64,000 nucleotides of DNA, taken from assembly GCF_048403405.1 (NCBI RefSeq), contig NZ_CP183129.1, one strand, 5' to 3'. This DNA is from Escherichia coli (GTDB lineage: Bacteria > Pseudomonadota > Gammaproteobacteria > Enterobacterales > Enterobacteriaceae). The position numbers and the translations under genes are program-made. The notes under the pieces were generated by a model, which saw only the letters and a program-made list of their open reading frames with translations, did not search any database and was not told the DNA's origin. How positions within the stretch are numbered: position 1 is the stretch's first letter; every line of letters starts with the position of its first letter. This document shows positions 13,161-31,147 of the stretch, piece after piece.

Positions 13161-16100
13161 ATGTCCCTGACCCTGAATAAAATCCTTGTGTTATGCGCAT
13201 TGCTGATAAGCGCAATGCTGCCTGGGTGGTCATGGGCAGAATCTGCATGGCAAGACTCTTCAGATACGGTCGGCGAATTTAACGGTACCGTGCCCACCGC
13301 CGACAGTGCCAGCATACCCGTCTACCAGGGCAGTGTCTTTCTGGATCCTGCAAAGACGCATGAGGTAGCGTTTACCGCTAAACCGAGTGAATTCAGCGCG
13401 GATATTAGCGTCTCTAAATTGCTCGTCACCAATCCGCAAGACAGAGAAGGCGATATCATTTCCACCCCACGTTGGGAAAACCAAACGCCACCGACAGTAT
13501 CTTTAGTTTGGGCGGATGCCGCGACGCCGGACACCTTACTGGACCCACAGCCAGTCGCAGATCGCTCGTTTTGCGCTCAGGGACTTGCCGGGCGTTCGCT
13601 GGTCGCCTGGGCGCAGCCTGATCCCCAACAGACCATGCCGCTGTTATATTTACTCACCTCGACGGGCTATCCCTATGAAAGTGTTCTGACGCTCGCCGAT
13701 CAGAAAGTGACGCTGAAGATTGCGCCCGCGCAGGGTGACCTTATTTCCGTCAGCGCCGCGGGCTATGACGAATCCTCCGGTGCGGCGAAAACGACGGTTG
13801 GCGGCAGTATCACGTTAACGGTCACCACCAAAGATTGCGTCGGTAATGTTGTGGGGAATATTCCTTTTGTTATCAAACGCAAAGATGCTGAAAACCGCCA
13901 GGGTGTGGTGAACAATACTGCGCCGGTAAAACTGGGCACGACCGAATTAACCACCACCGCGACGGAATATCGTGGTACTACCGATGCGAATGGTGTTGCC
14001 ACGGTTACGGTCACCCAGGCCAACGGCCCTGGTGTAAAAACGCCGTTGGTCGCGAGCCTTGCGGGTATTGCTCAGGCCAGTGAAACGGCAGTGATCTTTA
14101 CCGTCCTCACCAGCCCGGATGTCCCGCAGGCTACAATGTGGGGTCATATGCCCGATACGCTGAAGGCCCGTGATTACACTTTTAGTCGACCAAAACTGGC
14201 GGCGGAAGTCGATAATGAAGACGGTACGGTTAACGATCACAATGAAACCTGGTCCACCTTTACCTGGAGCGGCGCGGATAAACATTGCGACATTTTGCCC
14301 GGAATGCGTCAGTTCGGTGCGCTGGCGACGGTGGTGCCAACGTCAGTGCAGGATGTGGCTGGTTGGCCGATGCAGGGTAATTTCTACTGGTCATCACTGG
14401 CGGGGATGAGTGGCCAGCACCATGCGGCGGATGTTTCGAACCGCAGCGAAGCGCAAAAACCGGACGATACGACGTTTATTGTGAGCTGTGTCGATAAAGA
14501 AGCGCCCGATGTTGAACCGAAGCTGGTACTGACGCCGGGCAGTTATGATTCGACGATAAAAGCGATGAAAGTAAAGGTGGGGGAAGAGGCTTCTTTACGC
14601 CTGACGATTACCGATAGCAAGAACAACGATCAGCCGCTGGCGTACTACTACTTTTCGCTGCATCTGGATGACGGCGTTAACCGTAAGAATCAAACTGACA
14701 CCGCGTGGCAGGCGAATCCGGTACAAATAGCGGGCGGCAGTAATGTCCATCAGGTTGACGCGCATACCTATGAAGGGATCACTGATGCTAACGGAGAGGC
14801 CTCTCTGACGCTGACCCAGCCAGGCGGTGTGGGGGTGAAAACTCACATCACCGCGAGAATGCGCAGCGATTTTACCGCCTCGGATGAGAAAGACGTTATT
14901 TTTACGGTGATCACCAGCCCTGATTCCGACAAAGCGCGGATGTGGGGACATATGTTGGGCATTATTGAAGCGAATAATATCTTTAAACGCCCACGGCTGG
15001 CGGATGAAACCGACAACGAACTGGGAGCAGTGCGGGAAAATAACGAAGACTGGGCGCTGTTTGATCAGAATAGCAGTATGCAGGCTGAGTGTGGTTTAGG
15101 TCATATTCCGAGCCAAAGCTCATTGCACAGTTTGTTTGCCGCACATCCAGCCAATGTCATCGGCACCGAATATGGCTGGCCAACGTTGCAAAAAGCGTAT
15201 CTTAGTGCGGTGGAAGAGACGTCGCACGCGTCGGTGAACCTGGCCACGGGCAACATCGACACCTATTCCGGCTTTAAGCAAAACTACCTTTCTTGTTCGG
15301 GCAATGAGATGGTCGCCCAGATTGCTGCGACCACCGATCATGATGTTTCCACAAGCAGCAGAGCGCAGGCTAAAGTGGGTGAAACGATTACCATGACGGT
15401 ACGCACCTTTAATGCCTTGAATAATGCGCCCGTGCCGTATACCGCGTTCACCATCACTAAAGATATGGGGAAAAATCGTCAGGGGCAGAGCACGGGTTTC
15501 GATGATCCAACCCGCGGCGCAATCGAGATGAATGGCACGCTCTACGGAACATCGCAACCGTCTTTAGTCTATGCAGGTACTACGGATGCGCAGGGTTTTG
15601 CTACTGTGGAAATTAAGCAACCGCAAGGTGTGGGCTTAGCGACGCCGCTGAATATTGCGCCTGTAAACTCCTATATTCCCAATACTGTTAATTACAATGT
15701 GATTTTCACTACGCTCACCAGTCCGGATGCGGTTGGCGCGCAGATGTGGGGGCATATGGATGAGACGATTACCGTCGATGCATTAACCTTTGCCCGACCC
15801 CGGCTGGCTGCGGAAGTGTCCAGCCCGGACGGCACATTAACGGAAAATAACGAAGTGTGGTCGCGCGTTAGCCAGGCCAACACTTCCAGCACCAGTAAAG
15901 GTGGCTGTGGTGCCAATATGCTCCCACGCCGTTCCCAGCTTAACGCGCTCTATGATGCTAACAGCGGTAACGCCGTTCAAACGGTACACGGTTGGCCAAC
16001 GCAGCGTCAGCCCTACTGGAGCAGTTCGCCCGCGGATCAGGTGCCGCATTACTACACCATAGCCCTCAACGATGGCGCGCGGACCGTTGGCGGTAGCACG

Positions 16101-19100
16101 GCGGTTTATGTCAGTTGCCTGACGACGGCTAACAATCCTGCCAGCAGCATTACGCTGGAAGTGGTGGACCCGGCGCAGTGGAACGCGGCAGCAAATGCGG
16201 CGAAGCTGAAAAAAGGCGAAACGCTACAGGTGAAGGTGACGGTAAAAGATGCTCAGGGCAATCCATTGGGTGATATGCCTTTTACGCTGAAGCGTGGCGA
16301 TGGTTATACCCGATCAAACGAAAAACACATTGCCGGTAGCGGTGATGCGCTGGTTGCGCCGGTTGTGATCAATAGTGGCCTGGCGGATGAAACTTCGCTC
16401 AATGATACCGCCGCAGCATACAGCGCGATGACCGGTAGCGATGGCACTAAAATTCTCACTATTACCCGCCCGGATACCCATGGCACAAAAACGTCGCTGA
16501 CCGCCGCGCTCTATTCAGACACAACGAAAAAAGCGACCCTCGATACCATTTTTACCGTTGTCACCAGCCCAGACAGCAATAAAGCGAAAATGTGGGGGCA
16601 TATGCCGGAAACGGTGACGGCTGCGGATGGAACGGTCTTTAAACGCCCATTATTGTTGAAAGAGTTATCCAGTACGTCGGGTCGAACAGCGATTGCAGAA
16701 GATAATGAGGACTGGGCGCAATTTACCCAAACTCAGGCGACAAGCACATCCTCTAATGGTTGTGGTAGTGAATATGTTCCCTCTCAGGCCGGGCTGGAGT
16801 CATTGTATGAAGCCAACCGCGGCAATGCGATGAAAACGGTTCAGGGCTGGCCCGTCGCCTCAAGTTACCTTACCAGCACGACAGGCAGCAGTAGTCTGGA
16901 ACAGCGTGACTTAAAGGCCGTCAATCTCAGTTCAGGCACCAGTTCGATAATTCCATCGGCCACAAAAGAACTGCTTACCTGCCAGACGACGCCGATCGTC
17001 AAGGCTAGCCAAATCGTTCTTGAGGCTGCGGACCCCACAAAATTTGACAGTACGAATAATGTTGTCAAAGCGAAAAAAGGGGAAGAAGTCGTGGTTCGCG
17101 TGACCACTAAAGATTCGCAGGGTAACCCGGTGGGAAATACCGCGTTTACGCTTAAACGTAACCTTAGCGTCAATCGGGCAAATGCGTCTACAACGGTGAC
17201 AGCAGGCGCGCTCATCGTGACGGATGCCTGGGGTAACACGCAGAGTAATTTTTCCTCAACAACAGCACTGATTTATGGCGTTACCGGCGCAGATGGTACG
17301 ACAACACTTGCACTGAAACAGGACAATACCACGGGTTTAAAAACCGAACTGACCGCCATGCTGGATACAGATAATAACGTAAAATCAATGCTTCCGGTGG
17401 TCTTTACGGTGATAACCAGCCCCGATACCCCTAAAGCAAAATTCTGGGGGCATATGGCCGAAACGATGACCGGTGCTGGCGGGCTTATTTATAAAAGACC
17501 GTTATTGCAAGATGAGCTTTCCGTTACAACCAGTCGAAGCTCTTTTCAGGAAGATGGAGAGAGCTGGTCACTGTTCTCGCCGGACCAGTCGAACAACACA
17601 TCTGTAAATGGTTGCGGTGCAGGATATGTCCCGGTTGAAAGTGAGCTGGAGTCACTGTATGCCGATGAAGGTTACGTGCCAATACATGACGTTACGGGAT
17701 GGCCTGTATCACGCGCCTATATCTCCAGTACGGTTGTTGCCTATTACACTCAAACATTTAATTTTAAAGCGGTTTCGTTAAAAACGGGTGATGGAACGGA
17801 GGTCATGTCAAGCAGTATAGGACTGCTAAGTTGTCGGGCTACCCCAGTGGCGGTGACCAGCCACATTATTGTTGAAGCGAACGATGCGACACAATTTGTC
17901 AAAGTTGACGAAACCCTCAGCGCACTAAAACGGAAAAAAGGTGACGACGCGGTGATTCGCGTGGTGACAAAAGATGCGCAGGGAAATGTCGTACCAAATG
18001 TTCCGTTTATTCTCAAACGTGAAGGATCGACAAATCGCCAGAATGTACAGTTGTCGAACAGAACTATCACTGTAATCAACGCTGCGGGAACGTCGGCAAG
18101 AGTGGATACTCCATCAATCTCCCTTTATGCGGTGACAGGTGCAGACGGGACAGCCACGTTTACGGTAAAGCAGGATGATTCTATAGGCCTGGTAACCAAT
18201 GTGTACGCTCAGGCCTATCAGTCGAGCCTGGAATCCAACAAATTACCCGTGATGTTTACCGTGATAACCAGCCCGGATACCCCCCTGGCAAGTTACTGGG
18301 GGCATATGGCGGAAACGTTCACTACGCGTTCTGGTACTGCCTTCAAACGCCCCTTACTCTCTGCTGAAAGATCGTCGGGCCAGTCGTTTATAGAAGACAA
18401 TGAAGAGTGGGCCGTGTTGAGATCGGCAACAAAGGGGGATATCGATAAAAGCGGGTGCGATGTACATTATCAACCACTGTTAAGCGAACTACAGGCATTG
18501 TACGACGAACACCCAAGTCGTGCGATAAAGACCGATCTGGGTATTCCGGTAAATAGCTACTGGTGGGCTTACGACATGGTGGCATATGCGGGTAACTGGT
18601 ACGATCAATATATTTATCTGTTAAATGGATCAAGTGGAAGAGCGTCTTCAACCACCTCGGCATTAATGCTGTGCCTGGTAAACCCTCATCCAGAGGCGGC
18701 TTCTATTGAAATGACCTCAACGGCGGAGGATGCAACGAAAACGGCCAGCAATGATGGCAGGCCCAGCGCAACAGCGAAGAAGGGAGAGGTTATCCCGATG
18801 ACTGTTACGGTGCGAGATAGCGCAGGCAATCCACTGCCAGGTGCCAGCTTTAACCTTAAACGAGGAACTGCGCTGAACCGCGCTAAAGCTGCGTACGATG
18901 CCTCTGCAGATGATCTTACCATCATACCTGTGGAACCTACTGGGGTAACGTCAATCTTGTATGGGGATGGGACGCAGGCTCTTCTGAAGACAGGGAGCGA
19001 TGGTAAAGCTACGTTTGAGGTCAGCCAGAATAGCAGTTATGGGCTGTCAACGCCGCTCAGCGCAGAACTCATGCGCGATACCTCGAAAAGCGTCACGCTG

Positions 19101-21203
19101 GATGTCATTTTCACGGTGATAACCAGCCCGGATTCGCCAAAAGCGAAATACTGGGGCCATATGCCGGAAACGTTTACCAGTTCGGCAGGCGTGACCTTCA
19201 AGCGCCCATTACTGGCAGCGGAAGCGACTACGGGGAGCTCGGTAAACGGTAATAATGAGACATGGTCATATATATATAGTACTCAAAAAGCGACGGCAGA
19301 TTGTTCGCTGGAATATCAACCGCGCCTCAGCGAATTGCAGGGGTTATATGACGATCACCCAAACGGGGCGTTAACGAAAGATCTGGGGTTGCCGATAGCG
19401 TCAGGAAACTGGTGGATTTATGAATTGCTTAACTCCAATGGTAGCTCCTGGTATTACCAGGTCTTTAACCTAAGTACGGGACGAGCATCATCCGCACTCT
19501 CTCCGGTTGCTCTAATGCTCTGCCTGGCACAGCCTCACTCTAAGCCGTCAAGCGTTACCCTGACTTCAATAGCATTTGATGAGACGAGAACCGCAAGTAA
19601 CGGCGGTACACCTTCGGCATCGGCGAAAAAGGGCGAGACAATCCCGTTAGTCGTGACAGTAAAAGACCAAAATGGCAACCTGCTGAGTGGCGAGAGCGTG
19701 ACGCTTCAGCGGGCACAGGCGAAAAGTCGTTCAGGAATTAGGCCCTCATCGTCGGCAGATGATCTTATTGTAGATGTCATCACACCGACAGCGGTCAGCA
19801 TTCCCTTTACTCAGGATACGGCAAAATGGCTTGGCTTTACCGGCAGTGATGGCACAGTGACGTTCAATGTTACGCAAAACGCCACCACCGGCCTGGCAAC
19901 GCCGTTTACGGTCTCGCTTGCACAAGATCCGCAGATCACGTCAAACCTGGACCTGATATTTACCGTGGTCACCAGCCCTGACTCCCTGGATGCCAACTAC
20001 TGGGGCCATATGCCAGAAACGGTGACAGCGGCAAATGGAACCGTCTTTGAACGACCGAAATTGTGGAAGGAACTGCCATCGACCTCCGGGGTAAATAAAA
20101 CCAATAACAATAATGAGGACTGGCCCTATTTTTCGTCAACCACTAAAGCAAATTCCAGCCTCAGCCCTTGTGAGGAAGCCCGGCAACCGTTGCTCAGCGA
20201 TATGAAGTCACTGTATCAACGTTATCCCAATAACACCCTTACGACGGAAACTGGCTGGTCAGTTTATTATTACTGGTGGGCGCAGGATAAGACTACAGAT
20301 GGTAAAAATCAGTCGCTCAATATGAAAGATGGCACAACGACATTGAATGGTAATGCCGCTTATCAGGCGTGTCTGGTGTCTGCGCGCGCGACGGTTTCCA
20401 GCGTCACACTGACCTCAACAGCGTTTGATGCTGACAGCCAGGCGGCGAAAGTGAAAAAAGGCGAAGCCATGCCCGTTACCGTGACGGTGAAAGACAGCGC
20501 CGGGAATACGGTACCGAATGTGGAATTTACTTTGAAACGTGGCGATGCATCGCCGCGTAACGCTGGGGCGACGTTGTATGGTGATGTGGTGGCGATGGAC
20601 GATCTCATCGTTCAGCCGTTATCTGGTTCGGCTGTTACGCTGAGTGAAAGCGGTAATACCATTAGTGGCATGACAGGCGCGGATGGGACGGCAAGTTTTA
20701 CGCTCCGCCAGGATAATACCCCTGGTTATAAAACGCCACTGACGGTTACTCTGGCTAATTACGCTTCCGCGACAGACACGCTGGACGCTATTTTTACGGT
20801 ACCAACCAGCCCGAATGTTTCCTCGGCGCACTTTTGGGGACATATGGCAGACACTGTAGTGGTGAATGGTAAATCGCTACATCGACCGTTGTTAACGACA
20901 GAATTGCCGTCCGGGGCTAATCCCGTATCCTCACCGATTATTAACTACGAAAACTGGGCTTCTGCACATATCATTGATGCCAGTAAATGGGATATTGCAA
21001 GGCAGTGTGGCAGCATAGAAAATGCACCGACATACAATGAATTAGAGTTGTTGCACACTGTTTTTAATTCACTGGGATGGCCGTCTTCACCAAGTTTTCC
21101 TTATTTGTCCTCTCAACAGTGTGGGATGGACGAAGGCACTGGAGCACAGGATTGTAGTATCACGCTAATGAATAAACCGGGTCTGGTGACCTGCTTCCAG
21201 TAA
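13161..21203 (+). CDS. ratA: giant repeat-containing surface protein (RatA-like)
   Basis: 2680-aa uninterrupted ORF with signal peptide and about 9 tandem ~283-aa repeats each carrying FTV(I/V)TSPD...WGHM. Confidence 0.8.
14050..20900 (+). repeat. tandem ~850-bp coding repeats inside ratA-like gene
   Basis: TSPD...WGHM motif recurs at approx. 14.10, 14.91, 15.72, 16.56, 17.41, 18.26, 19.12, 19.97, 20.80 kb. Confidence 0.75.
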
Positions 21204-26105: not shown

Positions 26106-27356
26106 GTGCTTACCGATACAAAATTAAAAAACCTCAAGCCGCAGGACAAACTGTACAAGGTCTCCGATCGTGACGGGCTGTATGTAGCTGTGCTTACGTC
26201 AGGCACGGTCTCGTTTCGCTATGACTACCGTATCAACGGTCGCCGCGAAACACTGGTAATCGGGCAGTATGGGCGTGACGGTATCAGCCTGGCAGAAGCG
26301 CGAGAAGAACTGATTGCTGCAAAGAAGCTGCTTAAAGCAGGCCAGTCACCGGCTGCGGCTAAACGTGACGGTATCAAAAAGATTCGTGGTGCCGAGACGT
26401 TTGCGGTACATACCGACAGTTATATGAAACATGTCATCCTGGCTGACAGTACCCGCGCAATGAAGCAGGCGGTGATCGACCGTGACATACTTCCGGTTCT
26501 TGGCAACAAAATGATGACTGAAATTACCACATCGATGGTTCGTGATTTGTGTGACCGGATTGTCGAACGCGGTGGTCGGGCAACAGCAGTGCAGGCCAGG
26601 GAGATCATCAGCAGCGTATACCGTCACGCCAATGACCGTGGTCATGGTTTGTTTAATCCTGCGGCTGACATTAAACCTTCGTCTATCGCCATATTTAAAC
26701 CACGAGAGCGAACACTGACGCCAGAAGAAATTGGCCTGTTCTTCCGCACGCTGGATGCCATTGGTGCTATGGGCACTATGAAAATGGCTTTAAAGCTGGT
26801 GCTTATCACTATGGTTCGTAAAGGCGAATTCACCAATGCAACGTGGGACGAAATAGATTTTAAAAAATGGACATGGACAATTCCTTCAGACCGCATGAAG
26901 GGAAGCCGGGCGCATGTTATTTACCTGCCTAAACAGGCACAGGATATATTGGTCGGGTTGCAGATGTGCGCTGGTGGAAGTGAATATCTGGTTCCTGGTC
27001 GTTACAACTTCCGGAAGCCATTATCTAATGCCGCGCTGAACTCTCTGATCGACAGAACGGTGAAAATAATAAATGAAGATGGTGAGCATATTCAGGACTT
27101 CACCGTACATGATATGCGCCGTACAGCCAGTACGTTGTTGCATGAGGCTGGTTATCCTTCAGACTGGATTGAAAAGGCTCTGGCACATGAGCAGAAAGGT
27201 GTGCGCGCCGTATATAACAAAGCGGAATACGCCAGACAGCGCGCCTACATGTTGCAGCAGTGGGCCGATATGATTGATTCCTGGATTGACGGGGAGCATA
27301 CGGATCTGATTCCGTTCTCCCCGTCGAAGTTTGAGAAGTGGATGGCGGGAGAATAA
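26106..27356 (+). CDS. int: tyrosine integrase (P4-like family), prophage left end
   Basis: 416-aa ORF, GTG start; N-terminus MLTDTKLKNLKPQDKLYKVSDRDGLY typical of P4-type integrases; C-terminal catalytic region (HDMRRTASTLL...Y). Confidence 0.9.
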   Translation: MLTDTKLKNLKPQDKLYKVSDRDGLYVAVLTSGTVSFRYDYRINGRRETLVIGQYGRDGISLAEAREELIAAKKLLKAGQSPAAAKRDGIKKIRGAETFAVHTDSYMKHVILADSTRAMKQAVIDRDILPVLGNKMMTEITTSMVRDLCDRIVERGGRATAVQAREIISSVYRHANDRGHGLFNPAADIKPSSIAIFKPRERTLTPEEIGLFFRTLDAIGAMGTMKMALKLVLITMVRKGEFTNATWDEIDFKKWTWTIPSDRMKGSRAHVIYLPKQAQDILVGLQMCAGGSEYLVPGRYNFRKPLSNAALNSLIDRTVKIINEDGEHIQDFTVHDMRRTASTLLHEAGYPSDWIEKALAHEQKGVRAVYNKAEYARQRAYMLQQWADMIDSWIDGEHTDLIPFSPSKFEKWMAGE

Positions 27357-27359
27357 CGT

Positions 27360-27554
27360 TTAATAGTTCTGCTGATTTTCTTCCATCTCGGCTTCTGCTG
27401 CCAGTGATTCAATTTTGTCTGCGAATATTGCTGACAGCGTTGCAAATTCAGCATCAGTGACAGCGGGAATTGGAACAAACCTGATCCCGCTGTGTGCAAG
27501 CATGTTTGCAGTTTCAAGGCATTTCCTTAAATCTGCTGGTGATGCCCTGTTCAT
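27360..27554 (-). CDS. small hypothetical protein, translationally coupled to methyltransferase
   Basis: 64-aa ORF (MNRASPADLRK...) whose ATG overlaps the methyltransferase TGA (ATGA overlap). Confidence 0.4.
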   Translation of the reverse strand: MNRASPADLRKCLETANMLAHSGIRFVPIPAVTDAEFATLSAIFADKIESLAAEAEMEENQQNY

Positions 27555-28201
27555 GCTGCACGCTCCCGCCCCTGGTTGTCTGTTGGTGACAGCGGAGCAT
27601 TGCTGAATGCATTTGTTAATTCGGCAATATCCAACGCGTATCCAGGGTGTAGTTGCACTGCCGGGTCTTCGCACTGATTACCCCAAACATCGAAGCCATG
27701 AGACGTCTGGCGGGCGAACAGTTCAATGCGAGAAACATCGCCTAACAATTGCACAAGTTTTTCACGAACAATATCTGGTTTTCTTGAATGCTCAAGCCGC
27801 GGTGCGGTAAATGACTGAACGATCCCTGCATTAATGCGCGTAGGTAGTTTTCCCTTTACTGCAAACAGGCAATCTTCACTATTGGCGCGAGTCATGTGTC
27901 CCATACCCATAACCAGTTTATCTGGTTGTCGACTACCACATTTTATCCACGTGAAGCCCTTCATGGTCATCAGACGGAATCCCCAGACTTCAACAACTTT
28001 TAGTGCTTCGAGTGGTTGTGTTGGCACCCACCACATGGCCAACAGACAGTTTTCATCGGCCAAATCCCACACAGGAAGGCGGCAGATATCCAGCACACTC
28101 ATAACCGGGTATTTAAAACCGGCACCGCGATTACCATCTGCGGCTTTGTCCCGGTATACCCAGGGTGGATCTGCATAGATTAGTGTGTATTTCTTAGTCA
28201 T
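27551..28201 (-). CDS. DNA N6-adenine methyltransferase, MT-A70-like (orphan, no restriction partner seen)
   Basis: MTKKYTLIYADPPWVY... DPPW catalytic motif near N-terminus, ~215 aa; start at ATG 28201. Confidence 0.7.
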   Translation of the reverse strand: MTKKYTLIYADPPWVYRDKAADGNRGAGFKYPVMSVLDICRLPVWDLADENCLLAMWWVPTQPLEALKVVEVWGFRLMTMKGFTWIKCGSRQPDKLVMGMGHMTRANSEDCLFAVKGKLPTRINAGIVQSFTAPRLEHSRKPDIVREKLVQLLGDVSRIELFARQTSHGFDVWGNQCEDPAVQLHPGYALDIAELTNAFSNAPLSPTDNQGRERAA

Positions 28202-28493
28202 AAACCACCCCACAACATCCTATGCCGCTATAGTCGCCACGGCGAAGGCCGTTACCTTTTGTGATACATTGGTCCCTGCGAACCGCGATCCTTGCACGCT
28301 CAACATCACCAGAAGCAACATCCATACACTGAAGCCAAAGGTGGGCGGCAATGCGGAACTGCCCTTTTTTCTCTCTTTCAATCGCGCGTTTTTCGATCTC
28401 TATCGCCGCAGGAGTAACGGCAACAACCTTTGAAGGGCTGCGCATTGAAACCTTGTTCATGTGATATTTTTCAAGTCGGCTTAACTTTCTCAC
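28194..28493 (-). CDS. hypothetical small protein (possible regulator)
   Basis: 99-aa ORF; no confident family assignment; true start may be internal. Confidence 0.35.
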   Translation of the reverse strand: MRKLSRLEKYHMNKVSMRSPSKVVAVTPAAIEIEKRAIEREKKGQFRIAAHLWLQCMDVASGDVERARIAVRRDQCITKGNGLRRGDYSGIGCCGVVYD

Positions 28494-28602
28494 TTAATCC
28501 AACCCTCTCTGAAAATTAATGCCAGCAGATAAAGCCATGCTGAAACAGAGGCCAGGAATAAGTACCATCCTGACCATTTGCTCCAGTGCCTTAGCAGCAC
28601 AC

Positions 28603-28851
28603 TCATTCCGCGTTGCTCACGGGACGATATACACGTTGCTGAACAGGAGGTTTTTTACCCTGGAACTCTGCCGGGCTTGCTGCATGACGTTCATCAAGCC
28701 AACGCTCAACTTCATCACGGTTCCATGCGCAGCGTTTATCGGTGATATACCAGCGTTTAGGAAATTCCCCTGCGCGCTCCATACGGTCGATAGTGCTCCA
28801 TGACAGTGGAACCACCGCCAGGAGTTCCTTCTTACCTAATGCACCTTTCAT
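28603..28851 (-). CDS. AlpA-family phage transcriptional regulator / excisionase-like HTH protein
   Basis: 82-aa ORF with LSWSTIDRMERAGEFPKRW motif typical of AlpA/Xis-type HTH proteins. Confidence 0.65.
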   Translation of the reverse strand: MKGALGKKELLAVVPLSWSTIDRMERAGEFPKRWYITDKRCAWNRDEVERWLDERHAASPAEFQGKKPPVQQRVYRPVSNAE

Positions 28852-28900: not shown

Positions 28901-29782
28901 TTACATAGATGTTTCGTTTAATTCTTCCCGACGAACGCTGTAAACGTCGGTGGCTTTTGCCAGCAGTTCGTCATCATCTGAAAGTTTTTGTGCAATGTAT
29001 TTGTAAGCCTTATCCAGTTCGGAGACAGTGCTGTAATTCATCGCTGCGCTGGTAAAGGCCATCAGCATTTCTTCTGGATCACGGCTATCCGCTTTACGCG
29101 TTTGCTCATCAGGCTTTTTCACTGGTTTAGCGTTGATCAGACTGTTCATTCCCGCAGCAGTAGTTGTTTGCGGAGTAATGTCTCGCTCAACGCGCGGTGC
29201 CGTTTCCTGTAATTCGTCAGGGGTGTAAACACCGAGAAGTACATCAGGAGCGTGCAGGCGAGCCCATCGTTTCGTGCAAAGATAGGCAAGTTGCTGGCGC
29301 GGATCCTGTTCCCACAATGGAGAGTTACGCACTCCGGCTTGCGCCATACTGATGGTAAGCTCACGGGGTTCTGCTTCTCCTTTAAGAACTGCTGACACAG
29401 TTACCGTCAGATTCGGTGATTTATCTGTTTTGCCGTTAACATTCGACCAGTCACCGCTCCAGCGATAATTCAGGCGTGTCGCTAGCAGGCTGGAAGAGGA
29501 TACGACCGCGTTTACCAACTGTGCTTCGTAGCCTAACGTTCCGTTTACCACATGCGTTTTCTGCGCCACGGCGAAAGGGTTCATTCCCCACTGTGCCGCC
29601 TGCATGGTCACCGCCAGGCAATCGGCAGGTTTGCCTTCAAGATGTTTCGGCACAGTCGCTTTGCTTTGTGACATCAACTCCGCGAAACGCACCAGTTGAT
29701 TCATGCCCTCGGGGCTGAAGATTGCCGCAGCAGTGCCTACAGTTGCGCCTGGTTGTGATGTGATTGCGATATCATTGCTCAT
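28901..29782 (-). CDS. RecT/Redbeta-type single-strand annealing protein (probable)
   Basis: 293-aa ORF directly downstream of and 4-bp overlapping an exonuclease gene; composition and size of RecT-like SSAPs. Confidence 0.6.
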   Translation of the reverse strand: MSNDIAITSQPGATVGTAAAIFSPEGMNQLVRFAELMSQSKATVPKHLEGKPADCLAVTMQAAQWGMNPFAVAQKTHVVNGTLGYEAQLVNAVVSSSSLLATRLNYRWSGDWSNVNGKTDKSPNLTVTVSAVLKGEAEPRELTISMAQAGVRNSPLWEQDPRQQLAYLCTKRWARLHAPDVLLGVYTPDELQETAPRVERDITPQTTTAAGMNSLINAKPVKKPDEQTRKADSRDPEEMLMAFTSAAMNYSTVSELDKAYKYIAQKLSDDDELLAKATDVYSVRREELNETSM

Positions 29783-30600
29783 ACGTACATATCCTGTTTA
29801 CGTGCCCAGTCAGGGCGTTTAATAATTTCCACTCCGCCCCATTCATCGTTGATGCGGCATTCGTGATAGGTATTCAGATCCCGGCGGAACAGAGCGTGCC
29901 CGGCATCGACATCTGGCGCATCCAGCTCGAACACGCGTACCGGATACCGACCACAATCAATGCTTTCGCTCACGGCAAGAAAGAAAAAACCATGCGGCTG
30001 ACCAGTAACCCTCATTGCGCCTTCGCGGTACATTGCGTCCTGCACGTGGTAGCGGAATTCCTCGATGTGGCGTGCAAAACGGTCCATATCTGCAACCTTT
30101 TTCACGTCGACGATCACGTTGTGCTCGTTCAGCCATTTGTCTGGACGAATTCGGCACAACTCACCCGTCTCTTCATCATTCCAGTACATTGATGCTTCGC
30201 AGTAACCAGGTGCTTCCAGCATCCAGCGTGCCGCCGGGTGAGCCATTGCGCTATCACGCATCAGCTCCAGTTTCCGCCACTGCTCGGCATCAAGTACCGT
30301 AATCCCCATATCCGCCACATCACGAAGAAATGCCTCTTCGTCAGCTTTACCTTGTTTCGTCCGACGATCGAATTTCGGTGAAACAATGAAGCGTTTGTCG
30401 AACTCTCCAGGCTCCAGAAGCAGACAGTGCAATGCGGTTCCCATATCCAGTGCAGACTTTTTCTCTTCGTCTTCTGGTGCTGCCTGAACCCATTTAAGAA
30501 GCGCCGGATTCTTGGCAACCATGTCTAGTTGCGACTTACTCACTCCGTCACCGGCGTGGTAGTCTTCGTTGCTGATGTCGAAATAAATTCCCGGTTTCAT
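29779..30600 (-). CDS. PD-(D/E)XK exonuclease (YqaJ/RecE-like)
   Basis: 273-aa ORF with D...E.K-type nuclease core (VIVDVKK); paired with the SSAP gene. Confidence 0.65.
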   Translation of the reverse strand: MKPGIYFDISNEDYHAGDGVSKSQLDMVAKNPALLKWVQAAPEDEEKKSALDMGTALHCLLLEPGEFDKRFIVSPKFDRRTKQGKADEEAFLRDVADMGITVLDAEQWRKLELMRDSAMAHPAARWMLEAPGYCEASMYWNDEETGELCRIRPDKWLNEHNVIVDVKKVADMDRFARHIEEFRYHVQDAMYREGAMRVTGQPHGFFFLAVSESIDCGRYPVRVFELDAPDVDAGHALFRRDLNTYHECRINDEWGGVEIIKRPDWARKQDMYV

Positions 30601-31070: not shown

Positions 31071-31147
31071 TTACCGTTGAGGTAATGATTATGCGTATCT
31101 GGTTTGATGTCAATAGATATGAGTTAAAAAAATTACCCAACAGGTAA
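31071..31147. promoter_or_regulatory. OL-like operator pair: two perfect TTACC-N5-GGTAA palindromes
   Basis: TTACCGTTGAGGTAA at 31071-31085 and TTACCCAACAGGTAA at 31133-31147, between the repressor terminator and the leftward early genes. Confidence 0.55.

Follow-up and report, generated by a model that had tools for sequence, protein, structure and literature searches.

What does a phage adenine methylase do when no restriction enzyme stands beside it, and is the small gene that overlaps its stop codon its partner? These questions are raised by a gene pair in a 64,000-nucleotide (nt) stretch of Escherichia coli DNA (contig NZ_CP183129.1), here called the window. The pair lies on the minus strand of a prophage and consists of a gene for an MT-A70 family N6-adenine methyltransferase of 216 amino acids (aa) counted from its ATG (27551..28201; RefSeq WP_001525367.1) and a 64-aa open reading frame (ORF) downstream of it (27360..27554; RefSeq WP_001077941.1). 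The reading preferred here, with a probability of about 0.6, is that the methylase is a stand-alone phage orphan N6-adenine DNA methyltransferase of the prokaryotic MT-A70 type (beta-class, Dam-like), the target of which, as suggested by its relatives, would most likely be GATC.

Catalytic core of the methylase

An earlier note on this DNA, made from the letters alone, had described the protein as an MT-A70-type methylase with a DPPW motif and had asked for a classification with hidden Markov models. The classification agreed with this description. The protein matched the Pfam MT-A70 family PF05063 with E = 4.4e-22 and 79.3 bits (cut-off 23.9) over the whole profile (positions 1-172 of 172), as well as PHROG 359 'DNA methyltransferase' (E = 2e-119) and the PADLOC model MTase_II, with no NCBIfam model matching either the methylase or the 64-aa protein. 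The catalytic motif IV, DPPW, was located at residues 11-14 and is encoded by the codons GAT CCA CCC TGG at 28171-28160 (28160..28171, minus strand). In an alignment of 75 homologues, which were 38-99% identical, all 19 invariant columns were present in the window methylase. D11, P12 and W14 belong to these columns together with 16 other residues, and P13 was conserved in at least 90% of the homologues. The start of the gene is annotated in two ways, as a GTG giving 220 aa in GenBank records of TL-2011b-type phages and as an ATG giving 216 aa in RefSeq.

The AlphaFold2 model of the methylase had a mean predicted local distance difference test score (pLDDT) of 85.7 and a predicted template modelling score (pTM) of 0.83. 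Residues 1 to about 190 were modelled confidently and correspond to the catalytic core, and the C-terminal tail (the last 20-25 aa or so) was modelled at low confidence. The best matches of the model among solved structures in Foldseek were the catalytic domain of METTL3 and Tetrahymena MTA1 (E of about 1e-13). Judging from the model and the alignment, the protein has the MT-A70 catalytic fold and intact catalytic residues.

Absence of a restriction partner

The same-specificity endonuclease that would make a Type II restriction-modification system with the methylase was found neither in the operon nor in the part of the prophage within the window. Searches of the operon neighbours with Pfam and PHROG revealed no restriction endonuclease adjacent to the methylase, which was also the only match in the PADLOC scan. 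From the part of the prophage past the left operon, 39 ORFs were selected, and these gave structural and replication families only, with no nuclease or second methylase family among them. The operon does encode a PD-(D/E)XK recombination exonuclease of the RecE/exoVIII-like type (29779..30600, minus strand; Pfam DUF3799, E = 4e-22), without a PADLOC match, the homologue of which in phage Tyrion is annotated as exonuclease VIII. This enzyme is the partner of the RecT-family recombinase encoded next to it (28901..29782, minus strand; Pfam PF03837, E = 1.2e-31) and not a restriction enzyme. The neighbours of 80 relatives of the methylase were likewise ordinary phage early and nin-region genes and not endonuclease families. 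As no restriction endonuclease is present, the methylase is an orphan, in accordance with what the earlier note had supposed from its immediate surroundings.

The probable DNA target

Three stand-alone enzymes with GATC activity are related to the window methylase (41-79% identity), and GATC is therefore its most likely target. The p32 protein of Serratia phage BZS1, produced by itself in a dam- host, rendered plasmid DNA resistant to MboI and sensitive to DpnI, which indicates GATC methylation (PMC7556043). It is 75% identical to the methylase of phage HK639 (PMC7556043), to which the window methylase showed 45% identity. M.EfaBMDam of Tn1549 is cited as GATC-specific in PMC7556043, and the window methylase was 41.6% identical to Enterococcus plasmid homologues. 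For M.EcoGV of Shiga toxin (Stx) 2 prophages, PMC6602927 assigns GATC from overexpression and data obtained by SMRT (single-molecule real-time) sequencing, and M.EcoGV is described in PMC10810198 as highly similar to the enzyme of the Stx2a phage PA8.

BZS1 p32 and M.EfaBMDam share with the window methylase the Pfam family, the beta-class motif order and the form of small stand-alone enzymes of mobile elements without a restriction partner. The phage members of this GATC-specific group are encoded near an integrase gene (PMC7556043), as is the case in the window. They differ in that the identity to the window methylase is only about 41-45%, and the branch of HK639, RothD and BZS1 carries an insertion of about 23 aa, which is absent from the window protein. 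METTL3-METTL14 and the Tetrahymena MTA1c complex are more distant. They have the same catalytic fold (Foldseek E of about 1e-13, TM-score of about 0.65-0.7) and the same DPPW chemistry, but they are obligate heteromers with accessory nucleic-acid-binding subunits and their sequence identity to the window methylase is about 20-26%. No equivalent of such an accessory subunit was conserved beside the phage methylase in the survey of neighbouring genes. The same methylase with the same tail was found beside quite different neighbours in Tyrion and in the Salmonella and Enterobacter hormaechei prophages, which was counted in favour of a self-sufficient enzyme.

Several observations weigh against a stand-alone GATC methylase. 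The 216-aa protein has no obvious target-recognition domain, and METTL3 and MTA1, which it resembles in structure, function only as parts of hetero-oligomers. When purified on its own, the Stx-phage enzyme displayed near-background activity on DNA, including DNA with unmethylated GATC sites, and it co-purifies with PNB-2, which is encoded immediately upstream of it, in a complex that prefers 16S rRNA and 30S subunits (PMC10810198). GATC assignments obtained from overexpression may also include off-target activity, a caveat raised in PMC10810198. GATC sites are neither depleted nor enriched in the prophage (138 observed versus 147 expected), and their number supports neither side.

The lack of a recognition domain in so minimal an enzyme would also fit an enzyme that methylates adenine in DNA at a site different from GATC, or with relaxed specificity, serving as a broad anti-restriction device in the manner of M.EcoGII or Hia5. 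Phage orphan methylases of that kind exist (PMC3299994, PMC7544214; prophage OS31 in PMC7556043), and between the window methylase and the M.EcoGV type, to which GATC is assigned, 21% of positions differ. However, the known relaxed-specificity enzymes are not of the MT-A70 family; Hia5 and Hin1523 have DPPY, and MT-A70 is nowhere mentioned in the paper on them. All three MT-A70-clade enzymes that were tested alone, about 41-79% identical to the window methylase, gave GATC (PMC7556043, PMC6602927), and a relaxed or different target was considered quite improbable.

The methylase gene sits in the early-left operon, which is expected to be silenced by the prophage repressor in the lysogen. The enzyme would then be made mainly after induction or infection and could keep the rapidly replicating phage DNA fully GATC-methylated. 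Such methylation may shield the phage from restriction systems that cut GATC and are sensitive to methylation, and may also protect it in hosts with little or no Dam. This proposed role follows general knowledge of phage Dam-type enzymes.

The Stx-phage enzyme and the question of rRNA

Another relative is the enzyme of Stx2a phages (PA28 gp05 type), which was 79% identical to the window methylase over residues 1-201, the tails beyond this point being unrelated. The representatives M.EcoPA8orf6770P (gp5 of the Stx2a phage PA8) and M.EcoGV resemble the window methylase in the DPPW motif, in the location of their gene near the integrase end of the early-left operon and in the presence of a DUF1382 gene after it. 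They differ in possessing a C-terminal tail of their own and in being directly preceded by the gene for the 62-aa PNB-2, whereas a PerC-family gene occupies that place in the window. The last 27 aa or so of the Stx-phage enzyme (the tail type of E. coli that produce Shiga toxin, STEC) have been suggested to bind PNB-2, and the intact methylase gene (gp5, PA8) raises spontaneous prophage induction (PMC10810198).

These data open the way to a different reading, in which the window methylase acts mainly on 16S rRNA and tunes translation and prophage induction, as has been proposed for M.EcoPA8orf6770P. It would do so by itself or with a stand-in for PNB-2, for example the upstream PerC-family protein. 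The 79% identity to the enzyme family of PMC10810198 speaks for it, as do the missing recognition domain and the heteromeric nature of the nearest solved folds, METTL3 (an RNA N6-methyladenosine enzyme) and MTA1. The PerC gene, moreover, overlaps the start of the methylase by 8 nt (ATGACTAA) in the very position of PNB-2. Against it, no PNB-2 homologue was found upstream of the methylase, and tblastn revealed no homologue of PNB-2, PNB-1, DUF1317 or the winged helix-turn-helix (wHTH) protein of Tyrion elsewhere in the window. The tail suggested to bind PNB-2 is replaced by an unrelated one, the alignment to the Stx-phage protein stopping at residue 201. Of the features of the PNB-2 holoenzyme, the window thus has the catalytic homologue and lacks both the upstream PNB-2 gene and the STEC-type tail. 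PerC belongs to a family of transcription activators, and in relatives one or two genes separate it from the methylase. The rRNA claim for the Stx-phage enzyme itself rests on an S-adenosylmethionine (SAM) consumption assay, with no modified base identified (PMC10810198). An rRNA-directed activity of the window methylase was therefore regarded as unlikely, and a stand-alone GATC methylase remained the preferred reading.

Two proteins were also compared with PNB-2 directly. PerC was rejected as a diverged PNB-2, as no alignment between them was obtained, and the wHTH protein of Tyrion did not align with PNB-2 either. A further likeness was noticed in a 142-aa protein encoded upstream of a RothD/HK639-type methylase (L085:2070-2498), the last 23 residues or so of which resemble the C-terminus of PNB-2 (L002:3816-4004). 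The match follows the pattern LYIDE[MF]E..L and had a blastp E of 0.003 in a tiny database. It could reflect a shared methylase-docking motif or merely a conserved ribosome-binding-site sequence.

The downstream gene belongs to the DUF1382/lambda Orf63 family

The 64-aa ORF had been taken for a gene of unknown function, and this did not hold. It matched DUF1382 (PF07131) along its full length with E = 1.3e-30 and 105.7 bits (cut-off 27; positions 1-60 of 60), as well as PHROG 292, and it matched PDB entry 8DSB with E = 6e-13. This entry is Orf63 of phage lambda, a small protein from the exo-xis region that forms a dimer and is built as helix-strand-helix (PMC10869804). Deletion of orf63 in lambda and Phi24B made prophage induction later and lower (PMC5575149, PMC10869804). 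The window protein is about 49% identical to lambda Orf63, has the same predicted helix-strand-helix and is encoded in the same general early-left accessory location. The lambda gene, however, lies between exo and xis (PMC10869804) with no methylase annotated beside it, and the window copy is the last gene of its operon and abuts the convergent integrase gene.

The overlap between the methylase and the DUF1382 gene was as the earlier note had given it. The TGA stop of the methylase (27553-27551) and the ATG start of the DUF1382 gene (27554-27552) share an ATGA (27551..27554, minus strand), and RefSeq annotates a 99.2%-identical locus with the same three coding sequences (DUF1382, methylase and PerC) and the same 4-nt and 8-nt overlaps. 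A Shine-Dalgarno-like GGGAG motif was present 8 nt upstream of the DUF1382 ATG. Both ORFs are real genes and not chance ORFs.

A programmed -1 frameshift joining the methylase to Orf63 was rejected, as the tail region contains no slippery heptamer. Upstream of its start, the frame of Orf63 stays open for 40 codons, a length within chance.

Are the two genes partners?

The earlier note had read the overlap as a sign of a co-expressed partner. Co-expression of the two genes is indeed likely, and the other half of the idea, a dedicated partnership, was not supported. Along the operon, the junctions are, in order, ATGA, ATGA, a 49-nt gap, ATGA, GTGA, the 8-nt ATGACTAA between PerC and the methylase, and ATGA, which means that 4- or 8-nt overlaps were found at six of the seven junctions. 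The ATGA is for this reason not distinctive for the methylase and DUF1382 and reflects only the tight packing and sequential translation typical of this operon.

Relatives of the methylase gave the same picture. Flanking genes were called at 80 methylase loci taken from data with one genome per species and at five phage loci. This calling mis-ended the methylase ORF in 5 of the 85 loci analysed, and the start of the PA28 DUF1382 gene was mis-called, PA28 lying outside the 71 downstream proteins that were searched with Pfam. Neighbours overlapped the methylase by 1, 4, 8 or 11 nt at 44 of 80 loci on the downstream side and at 56 of 80 on the upstream side. The downstream proteins fell into 46 sequence clusters among 67, and those of 21 close relatives alone formed 12 clusters. 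Pfam identified DUF1382 in a single one of the 71 downstream neighbours, which was a near-identical copy of the window prophage. The other families encountered as neighbours included NinG, NinB, Q, RusA, DnaB, PerC, DUF1317, ParB-HTH and similar ones.

The proposal of a functional partnership, in which the DUF1382/Orf63 protein is co-translated with the methylase and serves it, for example, as a subunit for specificity or regulation, draws on the ATGA overlap with its internal Shine-Dalgarno motif and on the recurrence of the methylase-then-DUF1382 order in Stx2a and Stx1 phages, where the methylase is 79% and DUF1382 49% identical to the window proteins. For each of the two genes there is also a separate report that it raises prophage induction (PMC10810198, PMC5575149). 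The variety of downstream genes and the single occurrence of DUF1382 in the survey stand against this proposal. Outside the window's own phage group, the two genes are again directly adjacent only in Stx-converting phages; RothD and one Citrobacter prophage (L114) have DUF1382 at a distance of 0.6-1.2 kb from the methylase. DUF1382 was found in 372 phage records, and lambda, 434 and BP-4795 have it without an annotated methylase beside it. Conversely, no DUF1382 lies near the methylase of Tyrion, SPN1S or the Salmonella prophage. Orf63 is also a self-contained homodimer (PMC10869804), and the only partner of a close homologue shown by experiment is the upstream product PNB-2 (PMC10810198), which is absent from the window.

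An AlphaFold2 model of the methylase fused through linkers to two copies of Orf63 (methylase-linker-Orf63-linker-Orf63) gave no sign of docking, pTM dropping from 0.83 to 0.54 and the pLDDT of the tail staying below 50, though this was a weak test without predicted aligned error or contacts. Both parts were folded in the fused model, and a helix-strand-helix was predicted for each DUF1382 copy (pLDDT 80-92), in agreement with PMC10869804. Taken with the survey, a partnership of this kind was judged very unlikely. A related idea received the slimmest chance of all: that the methylase and the Orf63 homologue, the genes of which lie side by side and overlap in two unrelated phage lineages, make up a pro-induction module of two genes. 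In such a module the Orf63 dimer might modulate the methylase, or both proteins might act on the same host target (DNA or the ribosome), and the lysis-lysogeny balance would be tipped.

Variation around the methylase in related prophages

The C-terminal tail of the methylase (...FSNAPLSPTDNQGRERAA, or a near-identical form) is common to the window, Tyrion, the Salmonella prophage and the E. hormaechei prophage, and it is not found in SPN1S. The downstream slot holds a wHTH-like 68-aa protein in Tyrion, a 59-aa coiled-coil protein in SPN1S and in the Salmonella prophage at guaA, and a 124-aa protein in the E. hormaechei prophage at guaA. Co-variation of the tail with the neighbours was considered and rejected, as one and the same tail was found with four different sets of neighbours and thus does not track the gene beside it.

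In epsilon15-like prophages integrated at guaA (L083, L084, L168 and L170, compared with window 27360-28500), the slots on both sides of the methylase were hypervariable. The upstream slot was empty in the window and otherwise contained DUF1317, a wHTH protein of 75 aa (Tyrion), a DndB-like protein of 331 aa (SPN1S) or a PD-(D/E)XK protein of PF11645 with 175 aa (E. hormaechei). In the variants with the nuclease or with DndB, the methylases might not be orphans. The commonest product encoded directly downstream of MT-A70 methylases was a family of about 73 aa without a Pfam match, present at 10 of 67 loci (L085:3148-3369, L089, L119, L121, L124 and others).

A protein of 297 aa (P0005) with PerC and MT-A70 domains together was predicted in three database sequences. 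It is probably the result of a frameshift or an assembly error at the 8-nt overlap rather than a true fusion.

The prophage and its early-left operon

In the window, guaB and guaA are followed by a tyrosine integrase gene that marks the start of the prophage (26106..27356, plus strand; Pfam Arm-DNA-bind_3 and Phage_integrase), guaA being immediately upstream and the operon convergent with it. By its sequence, the prophage is phiV10/TL-2011b-like, that is, an epsilon15-like podovirus of the Uetakevirus-type group, integrated beside guaA. Its left (integrase) end showed about 97% nt identity to phages HEMP4, vB_EcoP_ZX5, TL-2011b and PAS61 over the first 20 kb. In the chromosomal part of the window, a 2680-aa ORF was noticed at 13161-21203 (plus strand), upstream of xseA and guaBA.

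The minus-strand operon reads, from its promoter end, a 104-aa ORF, the RecE-like exonuclease, RecT, an AlpA/Xis-like protein, a 38-aa membrane protein, the PerC-family protein, the methylase and DUF1382. It is the early-left operon with recombination and accessory genes, in which the methylase is second to last and DUF1382 last. The AlpA-family or excisionase-like regulator (82 aa; 28603..28851, minus strand) matched Pfam PF05930 and PHROG 66. The PerC-family putative transcriptional activator (99 aa; 28194..28493, minus strand) matched Pfam PF06069 with E = 6e-7 and PHROG 868 with E = 6.5e-62. Between them lies the ORF of the small membrane protein (38 aa; 28490..28606, minus strand), which matched PHROG 17484 'membrane protein' with E = 4.7e-27. 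It is annotated in phage Tyrion, unannotated in RefSeq and overlaps both neighbours by 4 nt.

A candidate early-left promoter, TTGACA-17-AATCAT (31085..31113, minus strand), was found by a consensus scan only, directly downstream of the repressor-gene terminator (31184-31165); the total count of promoter-like sites in the scan was not above the shuffled expectation. From this candidate to the end of the operon, the scan detected no terminator-like site. At the other end, the integrase gene (plus strand) and the operon (minus strand) converge at 27356-27360 with 3 nt between their stop codons and without a terminator-like site being detected at this point. If either transcript were read through, it would run antisense to the other, and this could couple int expression to the activity of the operon.

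A known locus and its use

The locus is common and already known, and there are studies of its closest relatives. The 'putative adenine methylase' and the downstream hypothetical gene of the TL-2011b/phiV10 group form essentially the same locus, with no material difference: the DUF1382 protein is 100% identical in TL-2011b, and the gene order int, DUF1382, methylase ... RecT, exonuclease is that of the window. A 1.6-kb segment around the pair was present in 560 of 5426 complete E. coli genomes with identical annotation in all of them. The same PerC-methylase-DUF1382 arrangement, with 98% protein identity, was also seen in NZ_CP079771.1, a 41-kb E. coli 'plasmid' record, which is probably an excised, circularised phage genome assembled as a plasmid. 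A literature search found no characterisation of a methylase of the phiV10/TL-2011b group. The locus matters little in itself; sequenced phages and hundreds of E. coli genomes carry it with the same annotation.

For methylome studies, the favoured GATC specificity has a practical consequence. Host Dam already fully methylates GATC. A comparison of the lysogen with a cured strain, which the earlier note had proposed, would probably show no new motif even with an active enzyme and would then be a false negative, because GATC is masked by Dam and lysogens probably keep the operon repressed.

Whether phage MT-A70 enzymes act on DNA (GATC) or on 16S rRNA is an open dispute. The window methylase is a natural PNB-2-less variant of these enzymes and would make a convenient control for it.

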